Shown here piece after piece: positions 34,097 through 55,091 of a DNA stretch of 64,000 bases; the first letter of the stretch is position 1, and every line of letters starts with the position of its first letter. A program made the translations under genes and the position numbers. The notes below the pieces were generated by a model. The model was given only the letters and a program-made list of their open reading frames with translations, was not told the origin of the DNA and searched no databases. The stretch is taken from NCBI GenBank assembly GCA_035502455.1, contig DATJUI010000019.1, positions 13,378 through 77,377 of the forward strand, read 5' to 3'. The DNA is from Thermoplasmata archaeon. GTDB lineage: Archaea; Thermoplasmatota; Thermoplasmata; Lutacidiplasmatales; UBA184.

Positions 34097-34648
34097 GTGT
34101 CGAGCCCCCGACCCGTACGGATCGCCCGCCCCGCGCCGACGACCGAGGCGCGGCCGCGGCGCGCGCGCCGTCGGGCCGACCCCGAGTCGGACGCACCCGG
34201 TTGGCGGCCGAACACCGCCGGCTCGCAACGGGCGGTGCACCTCGCGGAGCTGTTCGTCGGCGCGATCGTGGTGCTGTACGCGGTCCTCGCGGTGCTCGAC
34301 CGCACCGGGCCGGACGGCTCGACCCCGGGGGCCACGGTCGGCCTCCTGATCTTCACCTTTCTCGCGGTCGTCCTCGGTCTCTGCGGCGTCGTCTTCGCGC
34401 TCAGCCAGGCGCCGCGCGGCGTGGAGGTGACGGCGGACGCGACGGTCGTCGTCGGGCGGTTCGGACGGCGGACGGAGTACCCGCCGCTCGCGCGGCTCAA
34501 GGCGAGGGAGGTCCGTCGGTTCGCCCCCGGGATCCTCGCCCGCGCCCCGGTGCTGCTCGTCGAGCTTCGGACCGCGAGCGGCCGCCCTTCGAACGTCCTG
34601 CTCGAGGACGGCCTGATCCCGGTCGCGGGTCGCCCGTCCGACGACTGA
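34097..34648 (+). CDS. hypothetical membrane protein
   Basis: Two predicted TM helices (VGAIVVLYAVLAVL; LLIFTFLAVVLGLCGVVFAL) then a soluble domain. Confidence 0.45.
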   Translation: MSSPRPVRIARPAPTTEARPRRARRRADPESDAPGWRPNTAGSQRAVHLAELFVGAIVVLYAVLAVLDRTGPDGSTPGATVGLLIFTFLAVVLGLCGVVFALSQAPRGVEVTADATVVVGRFGRRTEYPPLARLKAREVRRFAPGILARAPVLLVELRTASGRPSNVLLEDGLIPVAGRPSDD

Positions 34649-34654
34649 ACGGCG

Positions 34655-35060
34655 CTATTCGAGCAGGTCCTCGAGCTCGCTCGCCACGAGGGTGAGCAGC
34701 TGGTCGAGCGACCGGTTCTTGAGCTCGGTGATGTGGCCGACGTCCGTCTCGAGGCGCGCGAGGAAGTCCTCCCCGTCGCGGACGAACGACAGGGAGAGCA
34801 CGTGACGCCGTCCGTCCGGCGACGGGACCTCGAGGGCCGCGGTCGGGGCCTTCGGCGCCGCACTCGCCTTCGCGGCCGGGGGCGTCCGGCCCTTCGGCGC
34901 CGCCTTCGCGGTGACCTTCGGGGCCGGCTTGCCCCCGCGCGAACCGGCCGTCGGTCGCGCGGCGGGCACTGCCCGGCGCGACGCCGCAGGTCGCTTCGAC
35001 GCGGGCTTCGCCTTCGGCTTCTGACGGTGGGAGCTCGGCAACCGGGTCGCCTCGAGTCGG
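34655..35060 (-). CDS. small Lys/Ala/Pro-rich protein with conserved C-terminal domain; leaderless, TTG start inferred
   Basis: Minus-strand frame ...SSHRQKPKAKPASKRPAASRRAVPAARPTAGSRGGKPAPKVTAKAAPKGRTPPAAKASAAPKAPTAALEVPSPDGRRHVLSLSFVRDGEDFLARLETDVGHITELKNRSLDQLLTLVASELEDLLE; a perfect TATA box lies about 20-25 nt upstream of the TTG. Confidence 0.45.
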
Positions 35061-35070
35061 GCGCACCAAG

Positions 35071-35086
35071 CCCCCCTATTTATGCG
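35071..35086 (-). promoter_or_regulatory. archaeal TATA box (minus strand reads gcataaataggggg)
   Basis: Isolated A/T octamer ataaatag in GC-rich intergenic DNA, positioned for a leaderless transcript of the 34655-35060 gene. Confidence 0.4.
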
Positions 35087-35170
35087 TTCGCGGGGCGACG
35101 GCGCGCCCGAGCGGCCCGCGCGGGTCCGGGCGCACGCCTTTAGCCCGAACGCCCCCCTACCGCTCCGCGC

Positions 35171-37009
35171 ATGGGCGCCGCGAGCCGACCGCCCCAGGGG
35201 GCCCGACCCGCCGCGCCGGAGGCGATCCGCCCCGAGATCCTGCTGCTCCTCGCCGGGCTGTCGCTGCTGCTCGTCTTCCTCGCGCTCGAGCCGTACCTGT
35301 CGTACGCCGTGTTCGGTTCGGACTCGGGCGAGTACTACCGGCTCACGGCGACGCTGTTGTCGACGGGCACGCTCCCCCACGGGGCGGCGTACGGCGGGTG
35401 GGGCACCGCGTACCCCGACTTCCCCGGCATCTACCTGCTCGCCGGCGCGAGCGCGGGGGCGCTCGGCATCGGGGCGTTCGACGCGCTCACCGTCGTCGTC
35501 CCGGTCGTCGCCGTCCTCTCGGTGTTCCCGCTGTTCCTCCTGTTCCGCCGGCTCTATCCCCACGACACCGTCGCGCTGCTCGCCGCCGCGATCGCATCGA
35601 TCGCCATGCCGCGCCTCTTCTCGATCGCCCACCCGGCGCCGCTCGCGCTGGGCGACTTCCTGTGCGTGGCCTCCCTCTGGATGCTCGTCGAGAGCCGACG
35701 GGACGTGCGGTGGCTGGTCCCGCTGTCGCTCACGGGCGGGGCGTTGATCGTCACGCACCACCTCTCCTCGTACTTCTTCGTCGTGAGCGCCCTCGGCGGC
35801 CTCTTCTTCCTCGAGATGTGGCGGCCGGGGCTCTGGAGTCGCCGCTTCCCGACGCGGGAGCTCGCGTGGCTCGGCGGGTTCGTCACGGCGACCTTCGTCT
35901 TCTGGTTCTACGGGACGACCTCGTTCGTCACCAAGGTGATCCTCGAGGGGCTGCCGTACCCGTCGTACGTCGGGTTCGTCGGATTCGAGGCGATCGCCCT
36001 CGGGGTGATCGGCGCGGCCGCCCTGCTGATCCGCTGGCGGCGCGCCCGGTACCGCCCGCGACCCGCGCGCGTGCGGCTGCCGACCGACCGCAGCCTGGTC
36101 CGGGACCTCACGGCGATCGCCGTCGTCGTCTTCGTGCTCGTCGGGGTGATCGTCTTCGTCCCGATCCCCGGCACGACGCAGACCACGACGCCCGCGACGA
36201 TCCTGTGGTTCGCCCCGCTCCTCGCGCTCGGCGTCTTCGCCGCCGGGAGCCGCCGGACGCCCTCGGTCGCGCGCCTGGGGCCGTTCGCCCTCACCTGGCT
36301 GGGGGGTCTCGGCCTGTCGGCCGGCCTCATGCTCGCCCTCTCGGCCATCGCCGGGACGGGCGGTCAGTACGAGACGCTCGCGAGCTTCGCGTCGACCCTC
36401 TCCCCCGAGCGGACGGTCGAGTACCTGTTCCTGCCCCTCGGCCTCCTGTTCGCGATCGGCCTCGCCCGCCTCGTCACCCGGGCCGGCGACGCGGGCGGAC
36501 GCCGCGCGTTCGTCGCGGCGGCGACCGGGGTCGTGGTGCTGCTCGCGGTGAACGCCGCGATCGTCTACCCGCCGCAAGCCCAGTTCGGCGGCTTCGAGGA
36601 GGGGCTCACCCGCGGCGACGCGGCGCTGTGGATGTGGGTCGGGATCGCGGCCCCGACGACCTGGGTCGTCGCGAGCGACCACCGGCTGAGCTCCATGGTG
36701 TTCGGCTTCGACGGCAATCCGGCCACGTGGGTCACGACCCCCGCGCTGTTCACCGGCACGAACGCCTCGCAGGCGTACGCCGAATTACGGAGCGTCGGGG
36801 CGCCCAACCCGGCCGACCCGCATCCGGTCGACCTCGTAGCGATCGACGCGGTGATGTACACGGGCGTTGCGCTCAACCCGTCGGACGCGGCGCCGCCGCT
36901 CACCGCCCAGGCGATCGCGTGGTTCGGAACGATGCCGTTCGTCCCGCTCTACGAGAGCGGCCTCTACGTCGTCTACCTCGTCGTGGGGCCGGCCGTCCCC
37001 GCGGGATAG
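35171..37009 (+). CDS. large polytopic membrane protein, possible GT-C-type glycosyltransferase or oligosaccharyltransferase-like
   Basis: 612 aa; at least 12 predicted TM helices and a C-terminal soluble domain; adjacent to the GT2/epimerase genes. Confidence 0.55.
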   Translation: MGAASRPPQGARPAAPEAIRPEILLLLAGLSLLLVFLALEPYLSYAVFGSDSGEYYRLTATLLSTGTLPHGAAYGGWGTAYPDFPGIYLLAGASAGALGIGAFDALTVVVPVVAVLSVFPLFLLFRRLYPHDTVALLAAAIASIAMPRLFSIAHPAPLALGDFLCVASLWMLVESRRDVRWLVPLSLTGGALIVTHHLSSYFFVVSALGGLFFLEMWRPGLWSRRFPTRELAWLGGFVTATFVFWFYGTTSFVTKVILEGLPYPSYVGFVGFEAIALGVIGAAALLIRWRRARYRPRPARVRLPTDRSLVRDLTAIAVVVFVLVGVIVFVPIPGTTQTTTPATILWFAPLLALGVFAAGSRRTPSVARLGPFALTWLGGLGLSAGLMLALSAIAGTGGQYETLASFASTLSPERTVEYLFLPLGLLFAIGLARLVTRAGDAGGRRAFVAAATGVVVLLAVNAAIVYPPQAQFGGFEEGLTRGDAALWMWVGIAAPTTWVVASDHRLSSMVFGFDGNPATWVTTPALFTGTNASQAYAELRSVGAPNPADPHPVDLVAIDAVMYTGVALNPSDAAPPLTAQAIAWFGTMPFVPLYESGLYVVYLVVGPAVPAG

Positions 37010-37716: not shown

Positions 37717-37741
37717 GGAGGCGGCGACACCGCCGTAACGC

Positions 37742-37750
37742 TTTATAATA
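37742..37750. promoter_or_regulatory. near-palindromic TATA box (tttataata) shared by divergent mptE-like and ftsZ genes; SD-like aggag 10 nt before the ftsZ ATG
   Basis: Sits 26 nt from the mptE GTG (leaderless geometry) and 36 nt from the ftsZ ATG. Confidence 0.4.
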
Positions 37751-44122: not shown

Positions 44123-45432
44123 GGCGCGGCCTCGGGCGCGTGCCGGTCGTGGAACTCGCCCGCCCGGTCGGTCCGTAGCAGCTCCTCGACCCGCTTCGGG
44201 TCCGCCGCGTGGCCGAGCGCCCAGCACAGCTTGGCGTAGGCCGTCTCGGGGAGGAGATCGCCGAGGTACAAGACCCCCGAGCGCAGCAGCTCGCGGCCGG
44301 TCGCGTAGACGTACGGGTCCGCGTTCCCGGCGAGGCACTGGGTCGTCATGGCGACGACCATCCCGCGGGCGGTCGCCGACCGGATCCAGGTGAGATGGTT
44401 CGAGCCGACGTGGCCGAGTCCCGTGCCCGCGAGCACGATCCCGCGCAGACCGCGCGAGAACGCTTCCGCGCGGTCCGCGGTGAGCCCGGGATAGAACCAG
44501 AGCAGGCCGGCGCGGGCATCGAGCGGTCCGTCCAGGCGCGCCGGGCCGGCGGCGGGCGGCCGCACCGGCTGCTCCCACCGGATCGAGCCGTCGACCACGT
44601 AGCCCAGCGGGGGCCCGTTGCGGCTCTGGAACGCATCGCGACGGCTCGAGTGCATCTTCCGCACCCAGGTCGCGCGGTGGATCGCGAGCCGGTCGTCGGA
44701 CGGCCCCGCGTGCATGACGACCACCACCTCGCCGCACCCGCGCTCGCGCGCGACCGCGACCGCCCCACCGAGGTTCGTGGCCCCGTCGGACGACGGCCGA
44801 TCGGGCGACCGCTGGGCCCCCGCCACCACGACCGGTCCGGGGAGGTCGACGAGCAGGAAGCTGAGGGCGGCGGCGGTGAAGCCGAGGGTGTCGGTGCCGT
44901 GCGCGATCACGACGCCGCGGGCCCCCGCCCCGAACGCCTCGACGACCTTCGAGGCGATCGCGACCCAATCCTCGGGGGCCAGGTCCTCGCTGAGCCGATC
45001 GAAGACGGGGACGATGCGGACCGGACCGTCGCGCTCGAGATCGGGGAAGAACGCGAGGATCCCCGACTCGTCCTTCACGGGTCGCACGCCACCGGTCTCG
45101 TAGTCGACCCGCGAGGCGATCGTGCCCCCGGTCGTCAGCAGCGCGACCGGCGCCCCCCCGACGGGGGATGACGGTCGGTCCGACGTCCCGGCGGACCGCC
45201 CCTCGTCGGCGGGACCGTCCTCCATCAGGCGGAAGCCGAACGAGGGTCCGATCCGGATCCCCACGTTGTAGCCGCTCTCCAGCTTGAGCGGCAGGATCCG
45301 ATCGCCCGACAGCTCGTGCCGGGGCACGATGGTCCCCGTCCACGTGCGGGCCCCGTCCGTGATCTCGACCCGACGGCCCATCGGCAGGGAGCGCAGGGCG
45401 TCCCACGGGTCCTTCGGTTCCGCTCCCGACAT
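44119..45432 (-). CDS. gatD: Glu-tRNA(Gln) amidotransferase subunit D (asparaginase-like)
   Basis: 437 aa; LLTTGGTIAS asparaginase threonine motif; 4-nt overlap with gatE. Confidence 0.9.
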   Translation of the reverse strand: MSGAEPKDPWDALRSLPMGRRVEITDGARTWTGTIVPRHELSGDRILPLKLESGYNVGIRIGPSFGFRLMEDGPADEGRSAGTSDRPSSPVGGAPVALLTTGGTIASRVDYETGGVRPVKDESGILAFFPDLERDGPVRIVPVFDRLSEDLAPEDWVAIASKVVEAFGAGARGVVIAHGTDTLGFTAAALSFLLVDLPGPVVVAGAQRSPDRPSSDGATNLGGAVAVARERGCGEVVVVMHAGPSDDRLAIHRATWVRKMHSSRRDAFQSRNGPPLGYVVDGSIRWEQPVRPPAAGPARLDGPLDARAGLLWFYPGLTADRAEAFSRGLRGIVLAGTGLGHVGSNHLTWIRSATARGMVVAMTTQCLAGNADPYVYATGRELLRSGVLYLGDLLPETAYAKLCWALGHAADPKRVEELLRTDRAGEFHDRHAPEAAP

Positions 45433-45555
45433 CGATCCGTTCCGGCGCGCCGTCGGACCCGGGAGCGGGTACGGCTAATAAGCGTCCACGACCGCTCGGT
45501 CCGGCCGGCCCCGGTCTTTTATACCGGACCCTCCTCGGCGCGCCGGGAACGCGCG

Positions 45556-45663
45556 AAGATCCGGATGCCCGTGTGGGGTAGCTTCGAGGTCGGGGTCGTC
45601 CCCCGCCTCGCTGCAGTGGATTATCCTAGAGGCCTGCGGAGCCTCAGACCTGGGTTCGAATCC
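45556..45663 (+). tRNA. tRNA-Arg (anticodon GCG) with putative about 33-nt intron in the D-loop
   Basis: 7-bp acceptor gcccgtg/cacgggc; T-arm ctggg-ttcgaat-cccag; anticodon arm gaggc-cTGCGga-gcctc (U33; anticodon 45625-45627); A14/G15; extra about 33 nt after position about 16, same place as in tRNA-Pro. Confidence 0.65.
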
Positions 45664-45795
45664 CAGCACGGGCGAGTTCCTCTCCCCAGCCGAGAGGCTT
45701 GGGGTCGGGGCGGTGCCTCGGCCCCGTTCGGAAGTGACCGAAGTTCCCCTAACGGTCCTACCCGAGCCTCACCATAGAACCGTCGGTCGAAGACC
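45645..45795 (+). repeat. repeat copy 1: tRNA-Arg 3' end plus about 130 nt of downstream flank (attL-like)
   Basis: Diverged homologue at 49404-49555; 15-nt exact core atcccagcacgggcg repeated at 47183-47197. Confidence 0.55.
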
Positions 45796-45801
45796 AAACT
45801 G

Positions 45802-46278
45802 CTACTTTCGGGCCCGGCCACCGGGACCGGGGCGCCTGTGCGTCCCTCGTCCACGAGGAGGTGGCCGTCTTGAGGATGTGGGCTCTCTTCCGAGACGTAT
45901 CCAGATTCCGTCGGGATCCTTGACCATCGCTGCCCATCCCCCAGTGGATTCCGGGGTGAACCGCGTGGCTCTACCTCCGTTTCGCAGGAGTTTCCGGTAC
46001 GCTCTATCGAGAGTGTAAGCCGGAGACGCACCGAGCGAGACGTCGATGTGATCCAGCTCGTCTCCCTTGCGGTACTTGGACGAGAACATGGAGCTTCGGG
46101 GATACCAGTTGAGTTCGAGGAGACGACGCGAGGTGGGATCCTGGAGGAGAGCGGTCACTCCGCCCCCCCAGCTACGACAATCATCCCTCCGGATCACGCG
46201 AAGTCCTAGTGCTCTCGTGTAGAACCTCACCGAACGCGGGAGATTCCCCACACGAATGCCGACACACTCGAGCCGCAT
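45802..46278 (-). CDS. VOC-family (glyoxalase/bleomycin-resistance fold) protein
   Basis: MRLECVGIRVGNLPRSVRFYTRALGL ... DPDGIWIRL beta-alpha-beta-beta-beta signature; C-terminal 30 aa probably read-through into the repeat. Confidence 0.6.
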   Translation of the reverse strand: MRLECVGIRVGNLPRSVRFYTRALGLRVIRRDDCRSWGGGVTALLQDPTSRRLLELNWYPRSSMFSSKYRKGDELDHIDVSLGASPAYTLDRAYRKLLRNGGRATRFTPESTGGWAAMVKDPDGIWIRLGREPTSSRRPPPRGRGTHRRPGPGGRARK

Positions 46279-46481
46279 CCTGAAGCATAGCGATCGAGGC
46301 TACTTAGGACCGAACCCAGTAGTTTCGACGCGCCCCCAGAGGTGCCGACCGAGACGCTAGATGGGTCCGCTGCGTACGGCCCCCAGCGAACTTTTCGCTG
46401 AGGGATTCGAACAAACGGCGATTCGACCACTAGCACGGGTGCTCTCCGAGCCGGCTCGATGAGCTATGTTCCCGACACGAC

Positions 46482-46508
46482 TATATTGATGTAGTGTATT
46501 GATGTGTA
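46482..46508 (+). promoter_or_regulatory. putative vapBC promoter/operator: two attgatgt direct repeats plus ctatatt TATA-like element
   Basis: attgatgt at 46485-46492 and 46498-46505, 5-15 nt upstream of vapB; RHH antitoxins typically autoregulate via repeats like this. Confidence 0.35.
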
Positions 46509-46511
46509 ACT

Positions 46512-46757
46512 GTGTCCGCAAAGACGGTGGCGTTGGACCCGGAGGCCTATGATATGCTGCGGCGCCAACGGCGAAGCGGCGAGACCTTTAGCGATGCGGT
46601 CAAGCGCCTTTCCGGCAAGCGCCGGTCGATCCTGGACTTTGCCGGGATATGGAAGGACATCCCCGACGAAGACCTCGAGAGGCTCCGCTCCTTCCTCGCA
46701 GAAGGACGGCGTCGGGACCGCGCGCGAATCGAGCGCCTGTTCCAGAAGGGGGGCTGA
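46512..46757 (+). CDS. vapB: type II antitoxin VapB (ribbon-helix-helix/COG4423-like)
   Basis: 81 aa; precedes the PIN gene with a 3-nt gap. Confidence 0.65.
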   Translation: MSAKTVALDPEAYDMLRRQRRSGETFSDAVKRLSGKRRSILDFAGIWKDIPDEDLERLRSFLAEGRRRDRARIERLFQKGG

Positions 46758-46760
46758 ACG

Positions 46761-47147
46761 GTGCGCTGCTTCGATTCAACTTTCCTTATCGATTACGTCC
46801 GGGGCGACGCGGACGCGGTCGGGAAAGTGAGAGAGCTCGTGGAGTTGGGTGAACGTCTCACGACCCCGTCCGCGGCTGCGGCCGAGGTCCTCGTCGGAGC
46901 TCACTTCCGGGGGCGGGGAGAACTCTCGCGAACTCTGGAATTCCTCGACCGCCTAGAGATCCTTCCCTTCGACATCGCCGAGGCAACCGAAGCCGGCAGG
47001 ATCGGTGCCGAGGCGCTTCGGCGGGGCGCCCCCATAGCGGGCAACGACCTGTTGGTCGCAGCGACCGCGCGACATCGCGGAGGGATACTCGTGAGCCGGG
47101 ACGGAGTCTTCTCGCAAGTGCCGGGCCTGGCGGTGGAAACGTACTGA
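46761..47147 (+). CDS. vapC: type II toxin VapC (PIN-domain ribonuclease)
   Basis: 128 aa; acidic PIN residues at conserved positions (CFDSTFLIDY ... AEV ... GNDLLVAATA ... SRDG). Confidence 0.8.
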   Translation: MRCFDSTFLIDYVRGDADAVGKVRELVELGERLTTPSAAAAEVLVGAHFRGRGELSRTLEFLDRLEILPFDIAEATEAGRIGAEALRRGAPIAGNDLLVAATARHRGGILVSRDGVFSQVPGLAVETY

Positions 47148-47182
47148 CGGATGGAGGGGATTCGTTACGGGGGCCGTAACGG

Positions 47183-47197
47183 ATCCCAGCACGGGCG
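47183..47197 (+). repeat. repeat copy 2: 15-nt exact match to the tRNA-Arg 3' end (atcccagcacgggcg) with about 45 nt of degenerate flank
   Basis: Identical to 45648-45662; follows vapC by 36 nt. Confidence 0.5.
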
Positions 47198-47486
47198 CCT
47201 TCCTCGGACCCGTGAGGAGCGGCGTGAGATTCGAGCACGATGAGACTCGGGCCCCCCCCGCGTCCAAGTGCGGGGTCTCGGCTGCTGGAGTCGAGGTGCC
47301 GTCGAGGTCGCCCGCTGACCCATGTGGGTGAGACGAACGTCTCGAAGTGCTCCCGATGAAGGTTCGCACCCGTGCAGCCTTGCCTCCTCCGCGGGACGTT
47401 ACCCCCGGTTTCAGATTCTGGGGAACCGCGGGTCAAGGAGGTCGAATGGCAGCCATTCAGCGAATCCGCTCGTCTTGCGGCGGGGG

Positions 47487-48320
47487 CTAGGTCTTCGGCT
47501 GGGCTCGCCCGACTGCGAAGGGACAAGCGAATCCCCAAATGATGATGACTACTAATGATCCCAGAATAAGAGGGAAGACGAATCTCGGTATCGAGTTCCC
47601 CGTAAAGATCCAAGCTGTCGCGGCTCCGCCGATAAAGCCTACGGTTCCTCCAATAAACCCTACGATCGCCATCCAATTTGGAAATACGCGGCTGTTCCAG
47701 AAGGCGACACTGAAGAGCGACACGCCCAAACCGAGGGCCGAGAAACCGAGGACCTCCCAACCATCCGTGATGTTGTACCAAAGCGCGGCCTCGTACGCAG
47801 CCGTCGCCGATGACGGAGCCGTGGTCGTCGATATGGCGTTGAGCGCGCTGTAGCTCGCGGCATTCGACACGGCCAACACGAATGCGCCGAAGAGGAACAC
47901 GAGCATGGAGGCCCATACCAGACCTCGACTTTGGGACTTGAGCGCCCCGCCGAGATACGTCGCGAAGGGCGTAACTCCCAAGGCGAAGACCAGGACCCAC
48001 AAATCGCTGAATGCGGTCGCGGCCTTGTTCGAATTGAACACGGCAAGCTGGTTCGACGGTGTCGAAGGTTCGGGTATGGTGACGAGTCCGGCGATGGTGA
48101 TTGCCGAGATCAGACCCGCCAAGATGGCGGCGATGAGAAAACCAGTCGGTCGGCCGGCGTCCGTGGGTATCGAGGTGTTTTCGGTTTCCGGAGGCTCGGG
48201 CAACATCGCGGCGACCGGGTTCTGAGGGATAAACGTTCCGAAGTCGCAAACCCTCTCTTTCGCCGAGCGGGGCGAGGAGTCGGGACCCGCCAGCGCCTGT
48301 CCGCCCAACGCCGGTCTCAA
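47487..48320 (-). CDS. hypothetical polytopic membrane protein (start possibly the internal Met at 48206)
   Basis: About 6 predicted TM helices; about 55-58 % GC, lower than the genome background. Confidence 0.55.
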   Translation of the reverse strand: MRPALGGQALAGPDSSPRSAKERVCDFGTFIPQNPVAAMLPEPPETENTSIPTDAGRPTGFLIAAILAGLISAITIAGLVTIPEPSTPSNQLAVFNSNKAATAFSDLWVLVFALGVTPFATYLGGALKSQSRGLVWASMLVFLFGAFVLAVSNAASYSALNAISTTTAPSSATAAYEAALWYNITDGWEVLGFSALGLGVSLFSVAFWNSRVFPNWMAIVGFIGGTVGFIGGAATAWIFTGNSIPRFVFPLILGSLVVIIIWGFACPFAVGRAQPKT

Positions 48321-48672
48321 GATCTCGGGCGGCCGGCCCGCTGCGCGGCGTCCGTGTCCGAGGCGCTTGTGCTCGGTCCTGAGCCCCTCGACTCGACCCG
48401 GGATTGAGGGAGGTGTCGATCACAAATCCACAAGTGAGGTCATGGACCGGTTCCACGACCTCACGGCGGGTACGTGCTCCCGCGTCCCGAGCGGGCGCGG
48501 TGGAGTCGAATACGTAGCTGCTCGAATCCCAGTAGGGGCGCCTACCCTATCTCTGCCCGCGAGCGTGGACACGAAGGTAGAGAGACCTACGACACCTCGC
48601 GCCCCCACGGACTCGCACGGGGAGTCGCGCGTCGCCGGGAGTTGGGATGTCGCACCCCGGCTCCAAGACCGG

Positions 48673-49290
48673 TCAGGCGGGCTTCTTGGCGATGACAAAA
48701 TCCATCGCATGGCGGTGGGGAACGCCACTCGAGTTGCAATCGAACTCTACCTCCCCCGAGTCCAGGATCTGCCAGTCCCCGTAGTACCCGAGCAGCTCGC
48801 CGGGGCGATAGGGGTGCTCCGCGGGATCCATTTCGGGCGGAGGATCGAGATAGGGCTTGGGAACAAAGGCGTTCACCGCATGAATGCCTCCCCGAACGGT
48901 GTGGGCTTGGAAGTGAGCAAAACGGGCCGGTCGGGCGCCCCGCGGGAGATTGTTGAGGACCCCGGAACTGAAGACCACATCGAATCGACGGCTCAGTTGG
49001 TACGATCGGATGTCGCCGATGCGAAAGCGCACCGCTAGACCGAGACGAGCGGCCCTTCGCTCCCCCTTGACCAGCCCGACGCGAGAGACGTCGACGCCAA
49101 GAACTCGAAACCCGTGACGGGCGAAGTGAATCGAATCTCGCCCCTCACCCGAGCCGAGATCGAGCAGCGTCGGCGACTTCGCCGGAAGGGTCCGGGCGAC
49201 TCGAACGACCTCGCGTGCCAGTCCGGTCGGCCTCGTCCCCCAGTACCAGCCCGGCCGTGAGTACCGCTGGTCGTAACTCGGTTCCCGCAT
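48673..49290 (-). CDS. class I SAM-dependent methyltransferase (TehB/thiopurine-MTase-like)
   Basis: LLDLGSGEGRDSIHFARHGFRVLGVDVS motif I plus post-I acidic residue; WYWG N-terminal motif. Confidence 0.75.
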   Translation of the reverse strand: MREPSYDQRYSRPGWYWGTRPTGLAREVVRVARTLPAKSPTLLDLGSGEGRDSIHFARHGFRVLGVDVSRVGLVKGERRAARLGLAVRFRIGDIRSYQLSRRFDVVFSSGVLNNLPRGARPARFAHFQAHTVRGGIHAVNAFVPKPYLDPPPEMDPAEHPYRPGELLGYYGDWQILDSGEVEFDCNSSGVPHRHAMDFVIAKKPA

Positions 49291-49403
49291 CGGTTACGTT
49301 CGCCCCCGACGGGCTATGTGTCGCGAGACTTGGGATTAGGCTATCTTGGGACTCACGACTCGTCGTCGCGGCCCGGGGGAGCGGCTCAGGACGGGGATTC
49401 TAG

Positions 49404-49555
49404 CCATCGGCGGCCGAATCGCAGCACGGGCGAGTTTCTCCCTCCACCCGAGAGGTTCGGGATCGGGTCGCTGCGCCTGTCCCGCTCGGAAGGGATCGAT
49501 GCCTCCCGCACAGTCCCACCCGGACCTCCGCATAGAGCCGTCGGGGAAAGCCCGA
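49404..49555 (+). repeat. repeat copy 3: tRNA-Arg T-loop/acceptor 3' fragment plus about 130 nt of flank, about 75 % identical to copy 1
   Basis: cgaatcGcagcacgggcgagtt (one mismatch to tRNA) then co-linear similarity to 45663-45795. Confidence 0.55.
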
Positions 49556-49664
49556 ACCGGCCTCCCCGGGCATGGGGAGTCGGATCGACGATCCGTGCCA
49601 CGCGGTGACGGCCGCCGTCCCTCGCCGCATTGGCCTCCACCCGGACGGGGGTCCGCACGCGCGT

Positions 49665-50723
49665 TCAATGCTTCGCGTAGTACTCCGCCACCGCGCGGAA
49701 CGACTCATTGGGCTCCCAGGGCATGTCGGGGTAGGTCGCCCCATGACCCCGTTCCAGGTAGCGAGCGAGGCTCGGGGAGGCCGTGTCCACGTCGAACCGT
49801 GGCTCCTCGTCGTAGGGCGTAATCTGCGATTGAAAGGTGCTAACGAAGCCGCCCAAGACGCCGGCTCGCTCGATCCGGTCCAATTGGGCGACCAGCTTCT
49901 GGGCCTGGGACTTTTCGTCTCGGACGAGGGGTGTCTTCAGCCGGGGGCGCACGAATCGGCCGATGAGGGGGAGTTGATGCAGGAGCTGAGAGCGGACATC
50001 GATCGGCGAGGGTTTGAGACCCGCGGAGTCCAGGAACCCATCGGCGCCCGGACCGTCGTCCGCCGTGGAGAATCCGAACTCCGTGATGACGACCGGCTTG
50101 CCCGTGGCGATGGCCGGACGGAGCATCTCGGTCCAGCGGTCCGCGATGCGGGCGGTAAGGTAGTGGTCCACCCCGACGAAGTCGAAAGCAGACCAGTCGA
50201 CTCCCTCCCAGACGAGCGACGCGTAGGTGAGTCGTCCGCGATACTCGCGTTGGACGGCCTTCACGAGTCGGGTGAGTAGCTCGTTCAGCGGGCGATTGTG
50301 CCGCCCACTCTTCACGGTGGGAAAGAACTGCGGGCTCCGGACCCGGGCTCTCATGGTCCGGCCGGGAATGACTCCCTCGTTGAACAGCGTGGCTTCCATC
50401 GCTACGCCGAGCACCACCCGGTCCGGAGCCTCCTTGCGAAGCGGCTCGAGCGCCCTGGCCGCCCGGATCAGGTAGCTCGCTGAGGTCTGGGGGCTACGGT
50501 CCCAGCACTGGGGAAAGATCCAGGTCTCGAGCCCTTCCGCGAGGGCCGCCCTGCCCGCGATCACCAGTCGTGCGGGATCCTTGCCGACGATTCGCACCGC
50601 GGTACAGTGCAGGTCGCGCCGGATGATCCCGAGCTCGTGGCGGACGTTCTCCGCCCGGAAATCCGGTCGCCAGTTCATCCCGTAGACGACGCCGGCGTCG
50701 TAGCAGACACCCTTCAGCTTCAC
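49665..50723 (-). CDS. TIM-barrel glycoside hydrolase-like protein (GH-A clan-like, ITEFG nucleophile motif)
   Basis: 352 aa; VVITEFGFS resembles the clan GH-A catalytic nucleophile strand; family not assignable by eye. Confidence 0.55.
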   Translation of the reverse strand: MKLKGVCYDAGVVYGMNWRPDFRAENVRHELGIIRRDLHCTAVRIVGKDPARLVIAGRAALAEGLETWIFPQCWDRSPQTSASYLIRAARALEPLRKEAPDRVVLGVAMEATLFNEGVIPGRTMRARVRSPQFFPTVKSGRHNRPLNELLTRLVKAVQREYRGRLTYASLVWEGVDWSAFDFVGVDHYLTARIADRWTEMLRPAIATGKPVVITEFGFSTADDGPGADGFLDSAGLKPSPIDVRSQLLHQLPLIGRFVRPRLKTPLVRDEKSQAQKLVAQLDRIERAGVLGGFVSTFQSQITPYDEEPRFDVDTASPSLARYLERGHGATYPDMPWEPNESFRAVAEYYAKH

Positions 50724-50918
50724 GCGCGCGGCGCTCCGTCGACCCGGCGCTCCCGTAAATCATCGTCGCGGAGTTGGACGCGGGCGCCGGTGGAGACGAT
50801 CGGACTCGAACTGAGTCGTCCGGCCGAAACGCGCCGATCGAGAGTCTCGGTCGGACCCCCGTACGGGTGCGTGGAAACTACGGAACCCGAGCTCGGCGGG
50901 ACGTTCGACCCACTGGGG

Positions 50919-51653
50919 CTACGTGGGGTCCTTGAGCCCGAGCAGCAACCCCCGGCCCGGAGTTAGGCCTCGCCGCAGGAAGCGGGCGGTCAGTCCGGCC
51001 TCCTCCATGAGTCGCACCAGCCGGCTTCGGGGTACGAGGAGGCCGATGTCCACCTCCTCGAGATGCTCCACGCGGCGCCCCGTTCTTCCGATGAGGTAGT
51101 GATAGTGGACCGCCGAGCGTCCCCCCCGCCGCGAAGAGAACGCCATGCGGGCGACCGTGACCGAGGGGCTCGTCCGAGTCAGCAGGTGAACGTACCCCGA
51201 GCGGAAGTCCGAGGGATCGATCCACGGCTCCACGATGACGACGCCGCCCGGCTGCAGGTGACGGGCGAAGTTCGAGAACGTCGCGGCGAGCTCCCGTTCG
51301 GTCTTGAGGTGACCGATCGCACTGTAGAGGCAGCTTACCACGTCAAAAGTCTCGTCGAGACGAAAGCTCCGCATGTCCCCGGGAATCAGCCGGACCCGGG
51401 GCAGACGACGCCGCGCCACCCGGAGCATCTCGCGACTCACGTCAACGCCCGTGACCGTGTAGTCACGCCGGAGGAAGCTCAGATGTCGTCCAGTACCGCA
51501 CGCCACATCCAGCCACGCCCGTCCTCGAGAACGGCCGAACTGGCGAGCGAGCGATTCGAGAACGCGGGCTTCCGAACGGTAGTCCTTCCCTCCCACCAGA
51601 TCGTCGTAGTAGAGCGCCAGTCGATGGAACATGAGGGGCTTGACTCGGGCCAT
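50919..51653 (-). CDS. TylM1/DesVI-family dTDP-aminosugar N,N-dimethyltransferase-like methyltransferase
   Basis: Co-linear similarity to TylM1 along the whole length: LALYYDDL, WLDVACGTGRHLSFL (vs LLDVACGTGMHLRHL), GDMRSFRLDETFDVVSCLYSAIGHL (vs GDMRDFSLGRRFSAVTCMFSSIGHL), GGVVIVEPWIDPSDFRSGYV (vs DGVVVVEPWWFPENFTPGYV), HYHYL (vs HYLV). Confidence 0.8.
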   Translation of the reverse strand: MARVKPLMFHRLALYYDDLVGGKDYRSEARVLESLARQFGRSRGRAWLDVACGTGRHLSFLRRDYTVTGVDVSREMLRVARRRLPRVRLIPGDMRSFRLDETFDVVSCLYSAIGHLKTERELAATFSNFARHLQPGGVVIVEPWIDPSDFRSGYVHLLTRTSPSVTVARMAFSSRRGGRSAVHYHYLIGRTGRRVEHLEEVDIGLLVPRSRLVRLMEEAGLTARFLRRGLTPGRGLLLGLKDPT

Positions 51654-52123
51654 ATCGAGCTCCCTCGACCGCTTCGGGCCCCTACGTGAACCCCTGGGTC
51701 ATGAATAAGAACGGGGTGCCACCGACGACCGGCTGGCTTCCCAACCTGGGAGTGCCGCCGTCCCGCCGGCTCTACCCGCATGCCGGATCGGATCCGGCCG
51801 AGATCGTGGGCCGGATGCCGGCTCTCGCCGTGCGCCCTCCTCTCGAGAGCGCGCTCGAGAGGCGGAGGGAGCTCGATCGTCGACCGGGGGGCGGGGACGC
51901 TCGACCTCGGACCCGCCGCACGCGTCTCTCATTCACCCATCGATCCCTCGTCAGGACCTCACGGGCGCCGGCCGCGATCGAACTCCGCTTCCGGAAGCTT
52001 CCCCCAATTTCTCGTCGATGCGGCGATGCTACGTTGCAAGTACGCGGTGGGCCACGGGGACGAGCCCTACGCGCCCGGTCCTGCCGAGGTCGAGGGGGTC
52101 CGGTCACGGGGGGGCGCTGCCCA

Positions 52124-52615
52124 TCAGGAGTTCAGGGCGGTGTCCCTGCGACGGGGGGTCGGAGCGTCGTCACCCCTTCCCGCTTGCGAAGTCCGTTCGT
52201 CCAAGCGCTTGAGGAGGTCCCGGAGCTGGAGGAGGTCTTGGGTCTCCCAGCCATCGAAAACCCCCTGGTGGTGGGCCAGCCGCTTGTGGACATGACTGTG
52301 GACGTGCAAGCCAACGCGAGTCGTCTGCACACGTACAAGACGGCGGTCCTCCCGGTCGCGGTGGCGACGTACGAGGTGGTCGCGCTCCATCTGGTCAATG
52401 ATCCCGGTCACGTGAGCCGGGCTGACGCCCAGAAACTGGGCGAGTTCACTCTGGGTGATCCCGCCGGGGGTCTGAGCGGCGTGGAGGGTCAGGTGGTGCA
52501 ACATCGGGAGCTGGGAGTGCAAGTGCGGACCGAACCGGGGGACCGCCCGGCGGAACACCCGACGGAGCAATCCCAGCGTCTCCTCGATCAGCTCGTCCCG
52601 ATCCGACTCGATCAT
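52124..52615 (-). CDS. MarR-family transcriptional regulator
   Basis: 163 aa winged HTH (ITQSELAQFLGVSPAHVTGIIDQMERDHLVRRHRDREDRRLVRVQTT). Confidence 0.8.
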   Translation of the reverse strand: MIESDRDELIEETLGLLRRVFRRAVPRFGPHLHSQLPMLHHLTLHAAQTPGGITQSELAQFLGVSPAHVTGIIDQMERDHLVRRHRDREDRRLVRVQTTRVGLHVHSHVHKRLAHHQGVFDGWETQDLLQLRDLLKRLDERTSQAGRGDDAPTPRRRDTALNS

Positions 52616-52660
52616 CCCGTCGTTCCCTCATCGCCCCGAAGGGCATAGAACCTTCGCCTC

Positions 52661-52705
52661 CAAATCATTCAATCAAAAATGTTTTAATACTGAATGAATA
52701 TAGAG
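52661..52705. promoter_or_regulatory. AT-rich divergent promoter/operator between marR and the ABC exporter; inverted repeat cattca...tgaatg and TATA-like aatatag
   Basis: Sequence tcattcaatcaaaaatgttttaatactgaatgaatatag; the ABC ATPase ATG is about 10 nt downstream. Confidence 0.4.
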
Positions 52706-52710
52706 GACGC

Positions 52711-53802
52711 ATGGCCGCAGCCGCCCGCCCTGCGAGCACCGTCCCCCGTGTCACCTACGGACCGTCCCGTTCCGACGCGATGATCGAGGTCCAGGATCTC
52801 GTCAAGGTCTACGGCGGCGGTCGCGGCCCGACCGCCGAGCCCGAGGTCCGAGCGGTCGACGGCATCAGCTTCTCGGTCTCCGAGGGAGAGTTCTTCGGGT
52901 TCCTCGGCCCGAACGGTTCGGGCAAGACCACGACGATGAAGATTCTCACGACCCTGCTCGGCCGGACGAGCGGACGGGTTCGGGTCGCGGGCTTCGACAT
53001 CGACCACGATGGGGCCCGGATGCGGAAGCAGATCGGCTACACCGGGCAGTCGATCGGGGTGGACGGGGATCTCACCGGCCGGGAGAACCTCATGCTGATG
53101 GGCCGACTGTACCACTTGCCCGGTCCTCTGGTCCGGGACCGAGTGGAAGACCTGCTCCGGCTCTTGCAGCTAACCGAAGCGGCCGATCGTCCCGCGTTCA
53201 CGTACTCGGGAGGGATGCGACGCCGGCTCGACCTCGGCTCGGCGCTCGTCCACCGGCCGAAGCTCCTGTTCCTTGATGAACCGACCACCGGATTGGACCC
53301 TCAGACCCGCAACGCCCTGTGGGAGTACCTCCGAGAGCTCCACGTCCGGGACGGGGTCACGATCTTCCTCACGACGCAGTACATGGAGGAGGCCGACCGG
53401 CTCTGCGAGCGCGTCGCGATCATCGACCACGGCCGTATCGTCGCGCAGGGAACGCCGGCGCAGCTCAAAGCCGAAATCGGGGCGGACAGCGTCACGATTC
53501 GCCTCCCGCTCGACGAGCGGCTCGAGGCGCGGAGACGGGAGGCGCTCGAGCTCGTCCGAACGGTCCCGGAAGTGGTCGGCGCTGCGCCCTTTGAGTTCGG
53601 GGTGACCGTCCAGGCCCGAAACGGAGGGGCGGCTCTCGTCGAGATCCTGCGGCGCCTCGAGTCGGGTCATGTCCCGGTGAAGGAAGTGGCGGTCTCGCCC
53701 CCGACCCTCGACCAGGTCTTCCTCCAGCACACGGGTCGCGAGATGCGCGCGGAGGAAGTGAGGCCGATGACCCGCATGGCCCGCCGCGGGATGGGACGGT
53801 AG
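52711..53802 (+). CDS. ABC transporter ATP-binding protein, DrrA-like (ABC-2 exporter ATPase)
   Basis: Walker A GPNGSGKTT, signature YSGGMRRRL, Walker B LLFLDEPTTGLD; DrrA-type C-terminal extension. Confidence 0.85.
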   Translation: MAAAARPASTVPRVTYGPSRSDAMIEVQDLVKVYGGGRGPTAEPEVRAVDGISFSVSEGEFFGFLGPNGSGKTTTMKILTTLLGRTSGRVRVAGFDIDHDGARMRKQIGYTGQSIGVDGDLTGRENLMLMGRLYHLPGPLVRDRVEDLLRLLQLTEAADRPAFTYSGGMRRRLDLGSALVHRPKLLFLDEPTTGLDPQTRNALWEYLRELHVRDGVTIFLTTQYMEEADRLCERVAIIDHGRIVAQGTPAQLKAEIGADSVTIRLPLDERLEARRREALELVRTVPEVVGAAPFEFGVTVQARNGGAALVEILRRLESGHVPVKEVAVSPPTLDQVFLQHTGREMRAEEVRPMTRMARRGMGR

Positions 53803-53803
53803 C

Positions 53804-54670
53804 ATGGCGACAGGGACCGGCCACCGCTACGAGCTCCCCGAGCTCTCGGTACCCTCGCCCGGATTCGGCTCCTTCTTCTCGGATATCGCGTGGGTCTGCT
53901 ACCGGAGTTTGAGGAAGCTCTCCCGCAACCCACTTCTCCTGATGTTCACGTTGATCATGCCGCTCATCTGGCTCGGGATGTTCAGCCAGACCTTCGGAAC
54001 GGTGTTCTCGAGGGCGGAGAGCGCCCCCGGTACCGCTCCCCTGCCGTACGACTACATCGCGGTTCTCTTGCCCGGGATTGCCATCATGACCGCGATCCAG
54101 GCGGCGTCACAGTCCGGGTTTGTGATGGTCTCGGACATCGAAACGGGCTTCATGGACAAGTTCTTCGTCGCTCCGATTCGCCGCAGTTCGGTCCTGGTCG
54201 GAAAGCTCCTCGGCGACGCCATCCGGATGGCGGGACAGGCGATCATCGTGCTCGGGATCGCCTACGTCTTCACGCTCGCCTTCGGCTGGAAGATCCCATT
54301 CGCGACGGGCATCCTGGGGGGCCTCCTGATCGTCCTGCTCGCCGCGCTCTTCGGGGTCGCGTTCTCGGGCCTGTCGAACTCGGTCGCGCTGTTCACGAAG
54401 AACACCGAGACGACGATGATGGTGGCGTTCACGCTCACCTTCCCGCTGCTCTTCCTCTCGACGGCGATGGTACCGCTCAGTCTCCTTCCGGGGTGGGTCC
54501 AGACGTTCTCGATGTTCAACCCGGTGAGCTACGTCGCCACCGCCTCGCGCGCGATGATCCTCACGGGCTTCAACTGGCCCGAGGTCGGCCAAGCGTTCGC
54601 AGCGATCGCGATTGTCGGAGTGCTGCTCAACGCGCTCGCGGTGTACGCGTTCCGGCGACAGGGCCGCTAG
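53804..54670 (+). CDS. ABC-2 family transporter permease (DrrB-like)
   Basis: 288 aa, 6 TM helices; starts 2 nt after the ATPase stop. Confidence 0.8.
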   Translation: MATGTGHRYELPELSVPSPGFGSFFSDIAWVCYRSLRKLSRNPLLLMFTLIMPLIWLGMFSQTFGTVFSRAESAPGTAPLPYDYIAVLLPGIAIMTAIQAASQSGFVMVSDIETGFMDKFFVAPIRRSSVLVGKLLGDAIRMAGQAIIVLGIAYVFTLAFGWKIPFATGILGGLLIVLLAALFGVAFSGLSNSVALFTKNTETTMMVAFTLTFPLLFLSTAMVPLSLLPGWVQTFSMFNPVSYVATASRAMILTGFNWPEVGQAFAAIAIVGVLLNALAVYAFRRQGR

Positions 54671-54677
54671 GGTGGAG

Positions 54678-55091
54678 ATGTCGACCGATCCGGAGCTCAC
54701 GCCCGGGGGAGGTCCCATCCAGCGCGGGACCGAGGCACCGTCCGACGAGCTCCCGGTGGGCTCGCGGAACGCGCCGAAGGCGCGCCGAGCCGCTCGCGAC
54801 CCGAAGCGACCGGGCGAACGATGCCGTGCGGCCCCGGGTCACTGGATCCCGGTCGTTGATCGGGCCCAGTGCGAGGGCAAAGCCGAATGCGTCGACGTTT
54901 GTCCGTACGCGGTCTTCCAGATCGGAACCCTCACGGACGAAGAGTATCGATCGCTGAGCTACCTGGGACGGGCCCGGGCGCGCCACCACCAGTTCCAGAC
55001 CTCTCGCACGCCCCGTGCCGCGGAGTGTCGGGCATGCGGGCTCTGCGTGGTCGCGTGCCCCGAGGATGCGCTGAAGCTGATCCGAAGCTGA
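54678..55091 (+). CDS. 4Fe-4S ferredoxin-domain protein with disordered N-terminus
   Basis: Two cluster-binding cysteine motifs, CEGKAECVDVCP and CRACGLCVVACP. Confidence 0.6.
   Translation: MSTDPELTPGGGPIQRGTEAPSDELPVGSRNAPKARRAARDPKRPGERCRAAPGHWIPVVDRAQCEGKAECVDVCPYAVFQIGTLTDEEYRSLSYLGRARARHHQFQTSRTPRAAECRACGLCVVACPEDALKLIRS

Follow-up and report, generated by a model that had tools for sequence, protein, structure and literature searches.

We describe a small gene on the minus strand of a 64,000-nucleotide stretch of DNA (the window) from a Thermoplasmata archaeon (GenBank assembly GCA_035502455.1, contig DATJUI010000019.1, positions 13,378 to 77,377 of the forward strand). The gene and its start are established. 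The 128-residue product joins a basic, Lys-rich tail to a strongly conserved acidic domain, and its composition and gene organisation, compared with those of known DNA-binding proteins, make it a candidate nucleoid-associated protein (NAP) or DNA-packaging protein; we regard this reading as a real possibility and advance it tentatively. The features of the locus to which we refer below are as follows.

34655..35041, minus strand: complete coding sequence, with a TTG start at 35041..35039, 128 codons and a TAG stop at 34657..34655; the product reads MPSSHRQKPKAKP...ELEDLLE
34814..35041, minus strand: basic tail, residues 1-76, predicted to be disordered, net charge +15, pI 12
34658..34813, minus strand: acidic domain, residues 77-128, net charge -5, pI 4.8, strongly conserved
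35042..35049, minus strand: variable 8-nt spacer from GAGG to TTG, with information at background level and a length of 8-10 nt in relatives
35050..35075, minus strand: conserved non-coding block GGGGGCTTGGTGCGCCCGACTCGAGG between the TATA box and the spacer, ending in a Shine-Dalgarno (SD)-like or initiator GAGG at 35053..35050
35076..35083, minus strand: TATA box ATAAATAG, the sole perfect copy in the 64 kb
35084..35091, minus strand: segment at the position of a transcription factor B recognition element (BRE), family consensus aCcatAccC, window sequence GCGAACGC; the assignment as BRE is made from position only

The G+C (GC) content of the window, taken in 1-kb steps, ranges from 61 to 79% and is 72-75% around the small gene. 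When we examined GC periodicity, the minus-strand frame showed third-position values (GC3) of 0.85-1.00 between 34620 and ~35040, and the second-position GC (GC2) of the small gene's frame was 35-50% in the part that encodes the acidic domain. High GC3 together with low GC2 in a high-GC genome identifies the frame as a real coding gene, and this pattern, along with the conserved homologues described below, bears out the small minus-strand gene proposed in the initial annotation. Upstream of ~35160 the periodicity shifts to the plus-strand frame of 35171..37009, which encodes a 612-aa membrane protein. The 675-aa open reading frame (ORF) at 34655..36682 on the minus strand, within which the small gene had been said to lie hidden, is an artefact, since it runs antisense through that membrane protein gene; the switch of GC3 frame near 35160 agrees with the earlier view on this point.

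Between the TATA box and the Lys-rich region the frame has a single start codon, the TTG at 35041..35039. Full-length members of the family are 113-154 aa long and begin with MP[ST]SxRQKxKAKP, which matches the window protein when TTG 35041 is used as the start; counted from there, the frame has 128 codons plus the stop and not the 134 codons first reported. GenBank entry HTT73857.1, annotated as hypothetical, is identical to the window protein at 128/128 positions, and hence the NCBI pipeline picked the same start, while the ENA gene call takes an internal GTG and yields a protein of 104 aa. High-GC genomes yield many long spurious ORFs, six of which overlap this region, but the idea of an ORF arisen by chance in high-GC DNA, or of a fast-evolving orphan that lacks a defined role, can practically be dismissed: it is refuted by the coding pattern of GC3 and GC2, by the presence of the family in 158 species, by 28 invariant residues, by the conserved start motif and promoter, and by a degree of conservation equal to that of FtsZ.

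The tail carries most of the argument for nucleic acid binding. Residues 1-76 contain 13% Lys, 9% Arg, 26% Ala and 20% Pro, with only 2.6% Asp plus Glu, so that the segment has the long, basic, Lys/Ala/Pro-enriched and acid-depleted character by which H1-like tails are recognised. In the 49 other high-confidence genes of the window Lys accounts for 2.0% of residues, as against 13% in the tail (binomial P = 3e-6); Arg, at 9.4% in those 49 genes, is at background in the tail. With Lys raised and Arg at background, the positive charge of the tail is selected, contrary to the mutational bias expected at high GC, and is not a by-product of that composition. Stretches of 76 residues with comparable Lys density occur elsewhere in the window only in L11, Spt5 and the SMC-like protein. 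In 67 long homologues the mean length of the tail is 63 aa and its mean net charge +13, with 15% Lys, 24% Pro and 22% Ala. Its sequence drifts between homologues (~40% identity, with many gaps), while its length, charge and composition are kept. The KPxAK/AAPK repeats attributed to the N-terminal part held up as a low-complexity, Lys/Ala/Pro-rich composition and not as repeats: Tandem Repeats Finder, applied at the DNA level, found no tandem repeats in the coding sequence, in which KPxxK and AAPK words are merely scattered. One homologue of 154 aa, P0125, does carry six tandem copies of GGSTK within its tail, from which we conclude that tail length can vary by repeat expansion while the C-terminal domain stays constant.

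In AlgP and proteins related to it, tails of the Lys/Ala/Pro kind are known to bind DNA (PMC9239181). The same work bears on a different reading of the tail, namely that it serves as a scaffold binding polyphosphate granules or another polyanion, possibly tethering them to DNA, as was proposed for Pseudomonas AlgP. AlgP, which has an H1-like, KPAA-rich tail, localises to polyphosphate granules, and their spacing depends on it (PMC9239181). The tail described here is alike in composition; it is, however, devoid of the regular KPAA repeats of AlgP, the conserved neighbourhood contains no genes for polyphosphate kinase or phosphatase, and nothing connects this lineage to polyphosphate granules. 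We consider a polyphosphate scaffold very improbable.

The remainder of the protein is of a quite different kind. The C-terminal sequence HVLSLSFVRDGEDFLARLETDVGHITELKNRSLDQLL... reported initially is present and constitutes the conserved part of the protein. Among 41 sequences, 28 of ~50 domain positions are invariant, and many of these are charged residues of the type found on surfaces. Over 84 loci, the median identity to the window is 88.5% for the C-terminal domain, compared with 90% for FtsZ and 86% for isocitrate dehydrogenase; for the 612-aa membrane protein and the convergent neighbour at the same loci the medians are 66% and 40%, respectively. The earlier description of a structured C-terminal 50 aa thus stands insofar as we find a compact, conserved module of 52 residues, and is qualified insofar as two AlphaFold2 runs disagree on its fold. 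From the full-length alignment, AlphaFold2 predicted a disordered tail followed by strands at 81-86, 93-98 and 104-107 and a helix at 109-127, with predicted local distance difference test (pLDDT) scores of 80-88. From the domain alone it predicted a single long helix over residues 14-57, with pLDDT above 90. These two models conflict (beta-beta-beta-alpha versus one helix); in our reading, the invariant Gly residues and the DGD and DxG motifs would mark turns, and for this reason we lean towards the model with strands. Such a conflict would fit a domain that needs to oligomerise in order to fold. Chains of the COMM family rank first in both fold searches, and the COMM-like topology does no more than hint at an obligate oligomerisation unit.

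A conserved frame in related genomes, whose lack would have told against the initial annotation, is present in 158 species-level genomes (one genome per species, 185,579 species scanned). Among the 80 of these 158 that were listed, nearly all are titled as Thermoplasmata archaeon metagenome-assembled genomes (MAGs), and a few as 'bacterium', 'Methanobacteriota archaeon', 'Thermoplasmatota archaeon' or 'Thermoplasmatales archaeon'. Their source samples are soil, peat and similar, and genomes with the family include UBA184, AcS1-36, AcS4-93, AcS5-107, SubAcS13-64 and SubAcS15-25. UBA184, together with MAGs that include AcS1-36, has been placed in the order Ca. Lutacidiplasmatales, formerly the Terrestrial Miscellaneous Euryarchaeotal Group (TMEG), an uncultured group with ~69% GC and genomes of ~2.1 Mb (PMC9287336). 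With the C-terminal 67 residues as query, 174 proteins were retrieved; those with a named organism are all labelled 'hypothetical protein' and all come from Thermoplasmata archaeon MAGs. To find distant relatives beyond the clade, 1.84 billion cluster representatives were searched exhaustively with the C-terminal domain (phmmer, HMMER), which yielded only 20 clusters, all of the same family, the most divergent at 59-64% identity. The homology and structure predictions called for by the initial annotation accordingly gave a conserved family, with no match to a known family and with conflicting models. Neither the protein nor the family profile matched anything in Pfam, NCBIfam (E <= 0.1) or the sequences of the PDB; in Pfam and NCBIfam at the same threshold, this includes the archaeal NAP families (histone, Alba, HU/HTa, MC1, Cren7, Sul7 and CC1). 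The literature searched contains no description of the family, and the databases list it as hypothetical only. Judged by its sequences, it is an orphan family restricted to one order of soil archaea.

Two peculiarities of the family were seen. One MAG (JOPF243, JASHWY01) has two differing copies of the gene on two contigs (loci L013 and L017), each with its own ATAAATAG block; these are either paralogues or the product of a mixed-strain bin. In addition, an 89-aa database protein, P0138, combines an N-terminus like that of a bacterial pseudopilin, with a transmembrane (TM) segment, and the last 26 residues of the family's C-terminal domain; it is most likely a chimeric assembly.

The proposal that the protein binds DNA gains interest from what has been reported for the wider clade. 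The Diaforarchaea are reported to have lost both histones and Alba at their root, and individual lineages to have evolved or acquired NAPs of their own, with HTa confined to Thermoplasmatales and MC1 to Marine Group II (MG-II) (PMC7613761). In the same study (Hocher et al., 2022), NAPs were sought as proteins of <290 aa, encoded in single-gene operons, predicted to bind DNA and present at very high abundance. With a product of 128 aa and its single-gene organisation, the small gene fits two of these points, and composition is the only basis on which its product is predicted to bind DNA. The H1- and AlgP-like composition, the small size and single-gene organisation, and the reported loss of histones and Alba together point to DNA as the likeliest ligand.

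On the NAP reading, the locus would specify a small cytoplasmic protein of two modules, transcribed as a single gene from its own strong TATA promoter, and translated from TTG on an mRNA with a leader of ~11 nt that would begin at or near the conserved GAGG. The first module, the N-terminal 60-75 residues, would act as a disordered Lys/Ala/Pro polycation that binds a polyanion non-specifically; the most probable target would be DNA, and the mode of action that of the C-terminal tail of histone H1 and of bacterial H1-like tails. The second module, the C-terminal 50 residues, would serve in self-association, in the binding of a conserved partner, or in both, and by keeping several tails together could lead to bridging or condensation of DNA. 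The tail's binding could also be tuned by the acidic terminal helix, were this to fold back on it. The protein is probably abundant, a view for which the outstanding TATA box is the only ground; we likewise infer how strongly the gene is expressed, where its transcription starts, that the protein oligomerises and that its ligand is DNA.

Several points weigh against the NAP reading. What speaks for it is composition together with gene organisation. With a net charge of -5 the folded domain is acidic, it has no match among known DNA-binding or NAP families, and Pro, Ala and Ser are as abundant in the tail as Lys. Tails of this Lys/Ala/Pro type also bind polyphosphate, as in AlgP, and RNA, as in many proteins. 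The loss of histones and Alba is reported at the level of the clade; neither UBA184/TMEG nor histone/Alba has an entry in the supplements of PMC7613761 and PMC9287336. Finally, a gene for a protein with two TM helices, described below, always lies next to the small gene and hints at a role at the membrane that a simple NAP would not lead one to expect.

The promoter region was examined among related loci, with results that confirm part of what was first claimed for it and contradict another part. The perfect box ATAAATAG noted initially is present at 35083..35076 on the minus strand and is strongly conserved among relatives. It is among the very few boxes in the window with at least 7/8 A/T, and the motif [ACG]TAAATAG occurs 79 times in the 912 kb made up of the related loci and the window, with one copy per locus that in each case precedes the small gene. 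In ~77 related loci a conserved block of ~43 nt, corresponding to 35050-35091 with the consensus aCcatAccC-ATAAATAG-GgGGGctTGGTGCGcCCGa.tCgAGG, carries 1-2 bits of information per position, against ~0.3 bits in its flanks. Within the TATA box the first position carries 1.4 bits and the other seven 1.9-2.0 bits, and information content is also raised at -8..-1 relative to the box in the aligned loci.

The box had been placed 20-25 nt upstream of the TTG, and the mRNA had been called leaderless, a term that calls for a start codon ~23-27 nt past the TATA box and for no SD element. We measured 34 nt from the end of the box to TTG 35041; the closest TTG, at 35069, sits 6 nt past the box and is out of frame. 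Nearly all main-clade loci (~75 loci) have 34, 35 or 36 nt between box and start, and this variation in length shows that the intervening block is not coding; ~75 related loci also have a conserved CGAGG 8-10 nt ahead of the start codon. In archaea the TATA box is usually centred near -26/-27, and from this geometry transcription is predicted to start near cGAGG, at ~35053. The spacing of the small gene resembles that of the FtsZ promoter in the window, where the box is followed by 36 nt containing GGAG, and not the 23-24 nt found for the MptE-like gene in the window (box and then 24 nt, a leaderless geometry) and for the divergent locus L085; leaderless expression is therefore doubtful here. 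At the window locus a leader of ~11 nt with SD-like first bases, its start position being a prediction, appears likelier than a leaderless mRNA, and the earlier claim is probably wrong in view of the spacing of 34-36 nt and the conserved GAGG in related loci. Leaderless expression is plausible, from spacing, for the two divergent relatives from genomes of ~64% GC: L085 has CTAAATAG, 23 nt and then ATG, which is leaderless spacing, and L089 has a box followed by ~27 nt to the start. A search of Logan contigs for the 5' end, in which one short contig was examined, gave genomic sequence.

We also tested other accounts of the conserved block. A bacterial origin, with the box serving as a -10 element and a leaderless start at TTG 35069 or GTG 35066, was rejected, as both codons are out of frame, the homologues come almost entirely from genomes titled Thermoplasmata and the spacing varies from 34 to 36 nt. 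An RNA element or hairpin was likewise rejected: Rfam gave no match to the upstream region at the gathering threshold or at E <= 1, a GGGC/GCCC inverted repeat was barely above expectation (mean stem 3.35 versus 2.89 for shuffled sequences), and the predicted 5' region of the mRNA was not more structured than shuffles (z = +0.85). Nor was a regulon found, the block being absent from other genes in the 912 kb; a match with 2 mismatches at 34180-34197 is within chance expectation. The block is conserved in the same genomes in which the adjacent coding tail drifts, and for a core promoter of the usual kind this is more conservation than expected. The ~22 nt between the box and the predicted transcription start, at about -22 to -1, may be the operator of a repressor, possibly with the small protein regulating its own gene.

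Another A/T-rich box, CTTTATAAT, lies at 37741-37749 between two divergent genes. On the plus strand it stands 36 nt before the ATG of FtsZ (37786), with GGAG in the leader, and on the minus strand it stands 24 nt before the GTG (37716) of the MptE-like gene. It could be a single palindromic TATA element that serves both directions.

The small gene forms a single-gene unit, flanked by one divergent and one convergent gene.

34097..34648, plus strand: convergent neighbour, 183 aa, made up of a PRPVRI motif at the N-terminus, a pair of TM helices and, C-terminally, a soluble domain; 6 nt separate its stop from that of the small gene
35171..37009, plus strand: divergent neighbour, a 612-aa polytopic membrane protein, in the frame marked by GC3

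A convergent 3' gene of 173-236 aa is found beside the small gene in all four types of context examined, including those of the most divergent members (L085 6251-6856, L087 5481-6191 and L089 2212-2733). The architecture of two TM helices plus a soluble domain, with a PRPVRI-type N-terminus, was read in translated examples that include divergent loci, and hhalign of the main-clade neighbour profile against the L085 protein gave a probability of 89.9% (E = 1.7e-6). The convergent protein has no Pfam family, and a profile search gave unannotated relatives only. The stops of the convergent pair are 3-19 nt apart or overlap, and the 3' ends of the two transcripts must therefore overlap. The divergent 612-aa membrane protein has no match in Pfam or NCBIfam; a gene of ~600 aa is kept beside the small gene in the main clade but not in L085/L089, where the upstream neighbour is an aldehyde dehydrogenase gene and the convergent gene is retained. 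The order in the main clade is L11, Spt5, a small protein, FtsZ, MptE-like, the ~600-aa membrane gene, the small Lys-rich gene and the convergent gene; beyond the last of these lies YjbQ or isocitrate dehydrogenase (IsoDH) in the main clade, and TruD in L087.

The constancy of this one neighbour suggests that the small protein might be the soluble partner of the two-TM protein, its C-terminal domain binding the cytoplasmic part and its tail, held at the membrane, tethering DNA or RNA or binding acidic lipids; it might also regulate the membrane protein. The convergent gene is the sole neighbour kept in all four types of context, its architecture was read directly and its homology is supported by profiles, and the stop codons lie as close as just described. 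Yet its median identity of 40%, set against the near-invariant C-terminal domain, is atypical of partners in tight co-evolution, convergent genes are not co-transcribed, and the adjacency may reflect simple inheritance within one order. We consider such a partnership improbable.

The neighbourhood is also relevant to a role in translation or transcription, in which the tail would bind rRNA or mRNA in the manner of ribosomal-protein extensions or RNA chaperones and the domain would dock on the corresponding machinery. Conservation at the level of FtsZ suggests an ancient, invariant partner, in the main clade the L11-Spt5-SecE-like-FtsZ cluster is a few kb away from the gene, and L11 and Spt5 are among the few products of the window with stretches of similar Lys density. 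On the other hand, the gene shares no operon with genes for translation, the neighbourhood is gone in L085/L089, and the family is confined to one order, when core partners of the ribosome are usually broader in distribution. An RNA- or ribosome-associated role thus appears unlikely to us.

Elsewhere in the window, the segment 6333-11552 contains a gene for an SMC-like protein of 1207 aa (MYLKRVKLRNFKSF...), followed by genes for 319 aa and 211 aa in the positions usual for ScpA and ScpB; from the appearance of their sequences, these are putative SMC, ScpA and ScpB. A region at ~45400-55000 has 61-68% GC, compared with 72-78% elsewhere, and a high-GC3 filter finds almost no genes in it; it may be a horizontally acquired island or a mobile element.

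Thermoplasmatota are reported to have replaced their chromatin proteins anew in one lineage after another (PMC7613761). The family described here belongs to one abundant order of soil and peat, is conserved to the level of FtsZ, has the most consensus-like promoter in its neighbourhood and bears a Lys/Ala/Pro tail of the type by which eukaryotic H1 and several bacteria compact DNA. If the NAP reading is right, the family would provide an example of a convergent, H1-like solution in archaea and a handle on the chromatin of an uncultured lineage. If it is not, we would still have an orphan that defines an order, with a constrained domain of 50 residues, a conserved membrane-protein neighbour and a block at the core promoter. 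A bolder speculation, which on balance we doubt, is that the family constitutes the principal chromatin protein of Ca. Lutacidiplasmatales/TMEG: a linker-histone-like protein, evolved independently, in which the tail would condense DNA and a new, near-invariant oligomerisation domain would join the tails, perhaps with anchoring or regulation by the two-TM protein and perhaps under the control of an operator.

We have compared the small gene and its product with known systems at several levels. The promoter agrees with the archaeal TATA/BRE type in having an A/T-rich 8-mer that is conserved among relatives and stands at a fixed distance from the gene: in main-clade loci 34-36 nt separate (A/C)TAAATAG from the start. 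Its activity is a prediction. With regard to the C-terminal domain, the COMM oligomerisation domain consists of a three-stranded antiparallel sheet followed by a long helix (PMC13392464), and the C-terminal topology of our full-length AlphaFold model is similar. Membership of the COMM family calls for beta-beta-beta-alpha with significant similarity and a helical HN domain ahead of it; here there is no HN domain and no match to Pfam COMM, and the domain-only run gave a single helix, so that the resemblance is at most a topological analogy that would suggest oligomerisation. The PUR repeat (Pur-alpha and the Borrelia Pur-alpha-like protein) has four strands, and in this comparison the scores were insignificant, no sequence match was found and the domain described here is acidic.

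The candidates put forward for the Diaforarchaea in PMC7613761, such as the 74-aa WP_019177984.1 of Methanomassiliicoccus luminyensis and BAB59768.1 of T. volcanium, are alike in being small, basic and Lys-rich, with an apparently novel fold, single-gene organisation and a distribution within one order. No relation in sequence was detected between them and the present family, for which the exhaustive HMMER search gave only its own 20 clusters, and they have not been described as a tail plus an acidic domain. In contrast to this family, known from sequence alone, those candidates have measurements of proteomic abundance and of presence in nucleoid fractions, where enrichment was mixed.

The closest parallels are the C-terminal domain of H1, AlgP of Pseudomonas, Hc1/Hc2 (HctA/HctB) of Chlamydia and the HU tails of mycobacteria and Streptomyces (Hlp/MDP1, HupS), which share with the family a long, disordered, basic Lys/Ala/Pro segment, a small folded module and the form of a small protein encoded by a single gene. 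The tail is C-terminal in these proteins and N-terminal here, and the regular short repeat found in H1-like proteins and AlgP (KPAA, PAKKA, AKKA or S/TPKK) is replaced by a tail in which Arg, Ser and Pro equal Lys in amount. The acidic folded module has no relationship to the linker-histone winged helix, the HU fold or the N-domain of AlgP (it has no match in Pfam, NCBIfam or PDB sequences), the host is an archaeon, and DNA binding, known in those systems, is here predicted. By this analogy, we would class the family as an H1-like basic-tail protein of archaea with a novel conserved domain.

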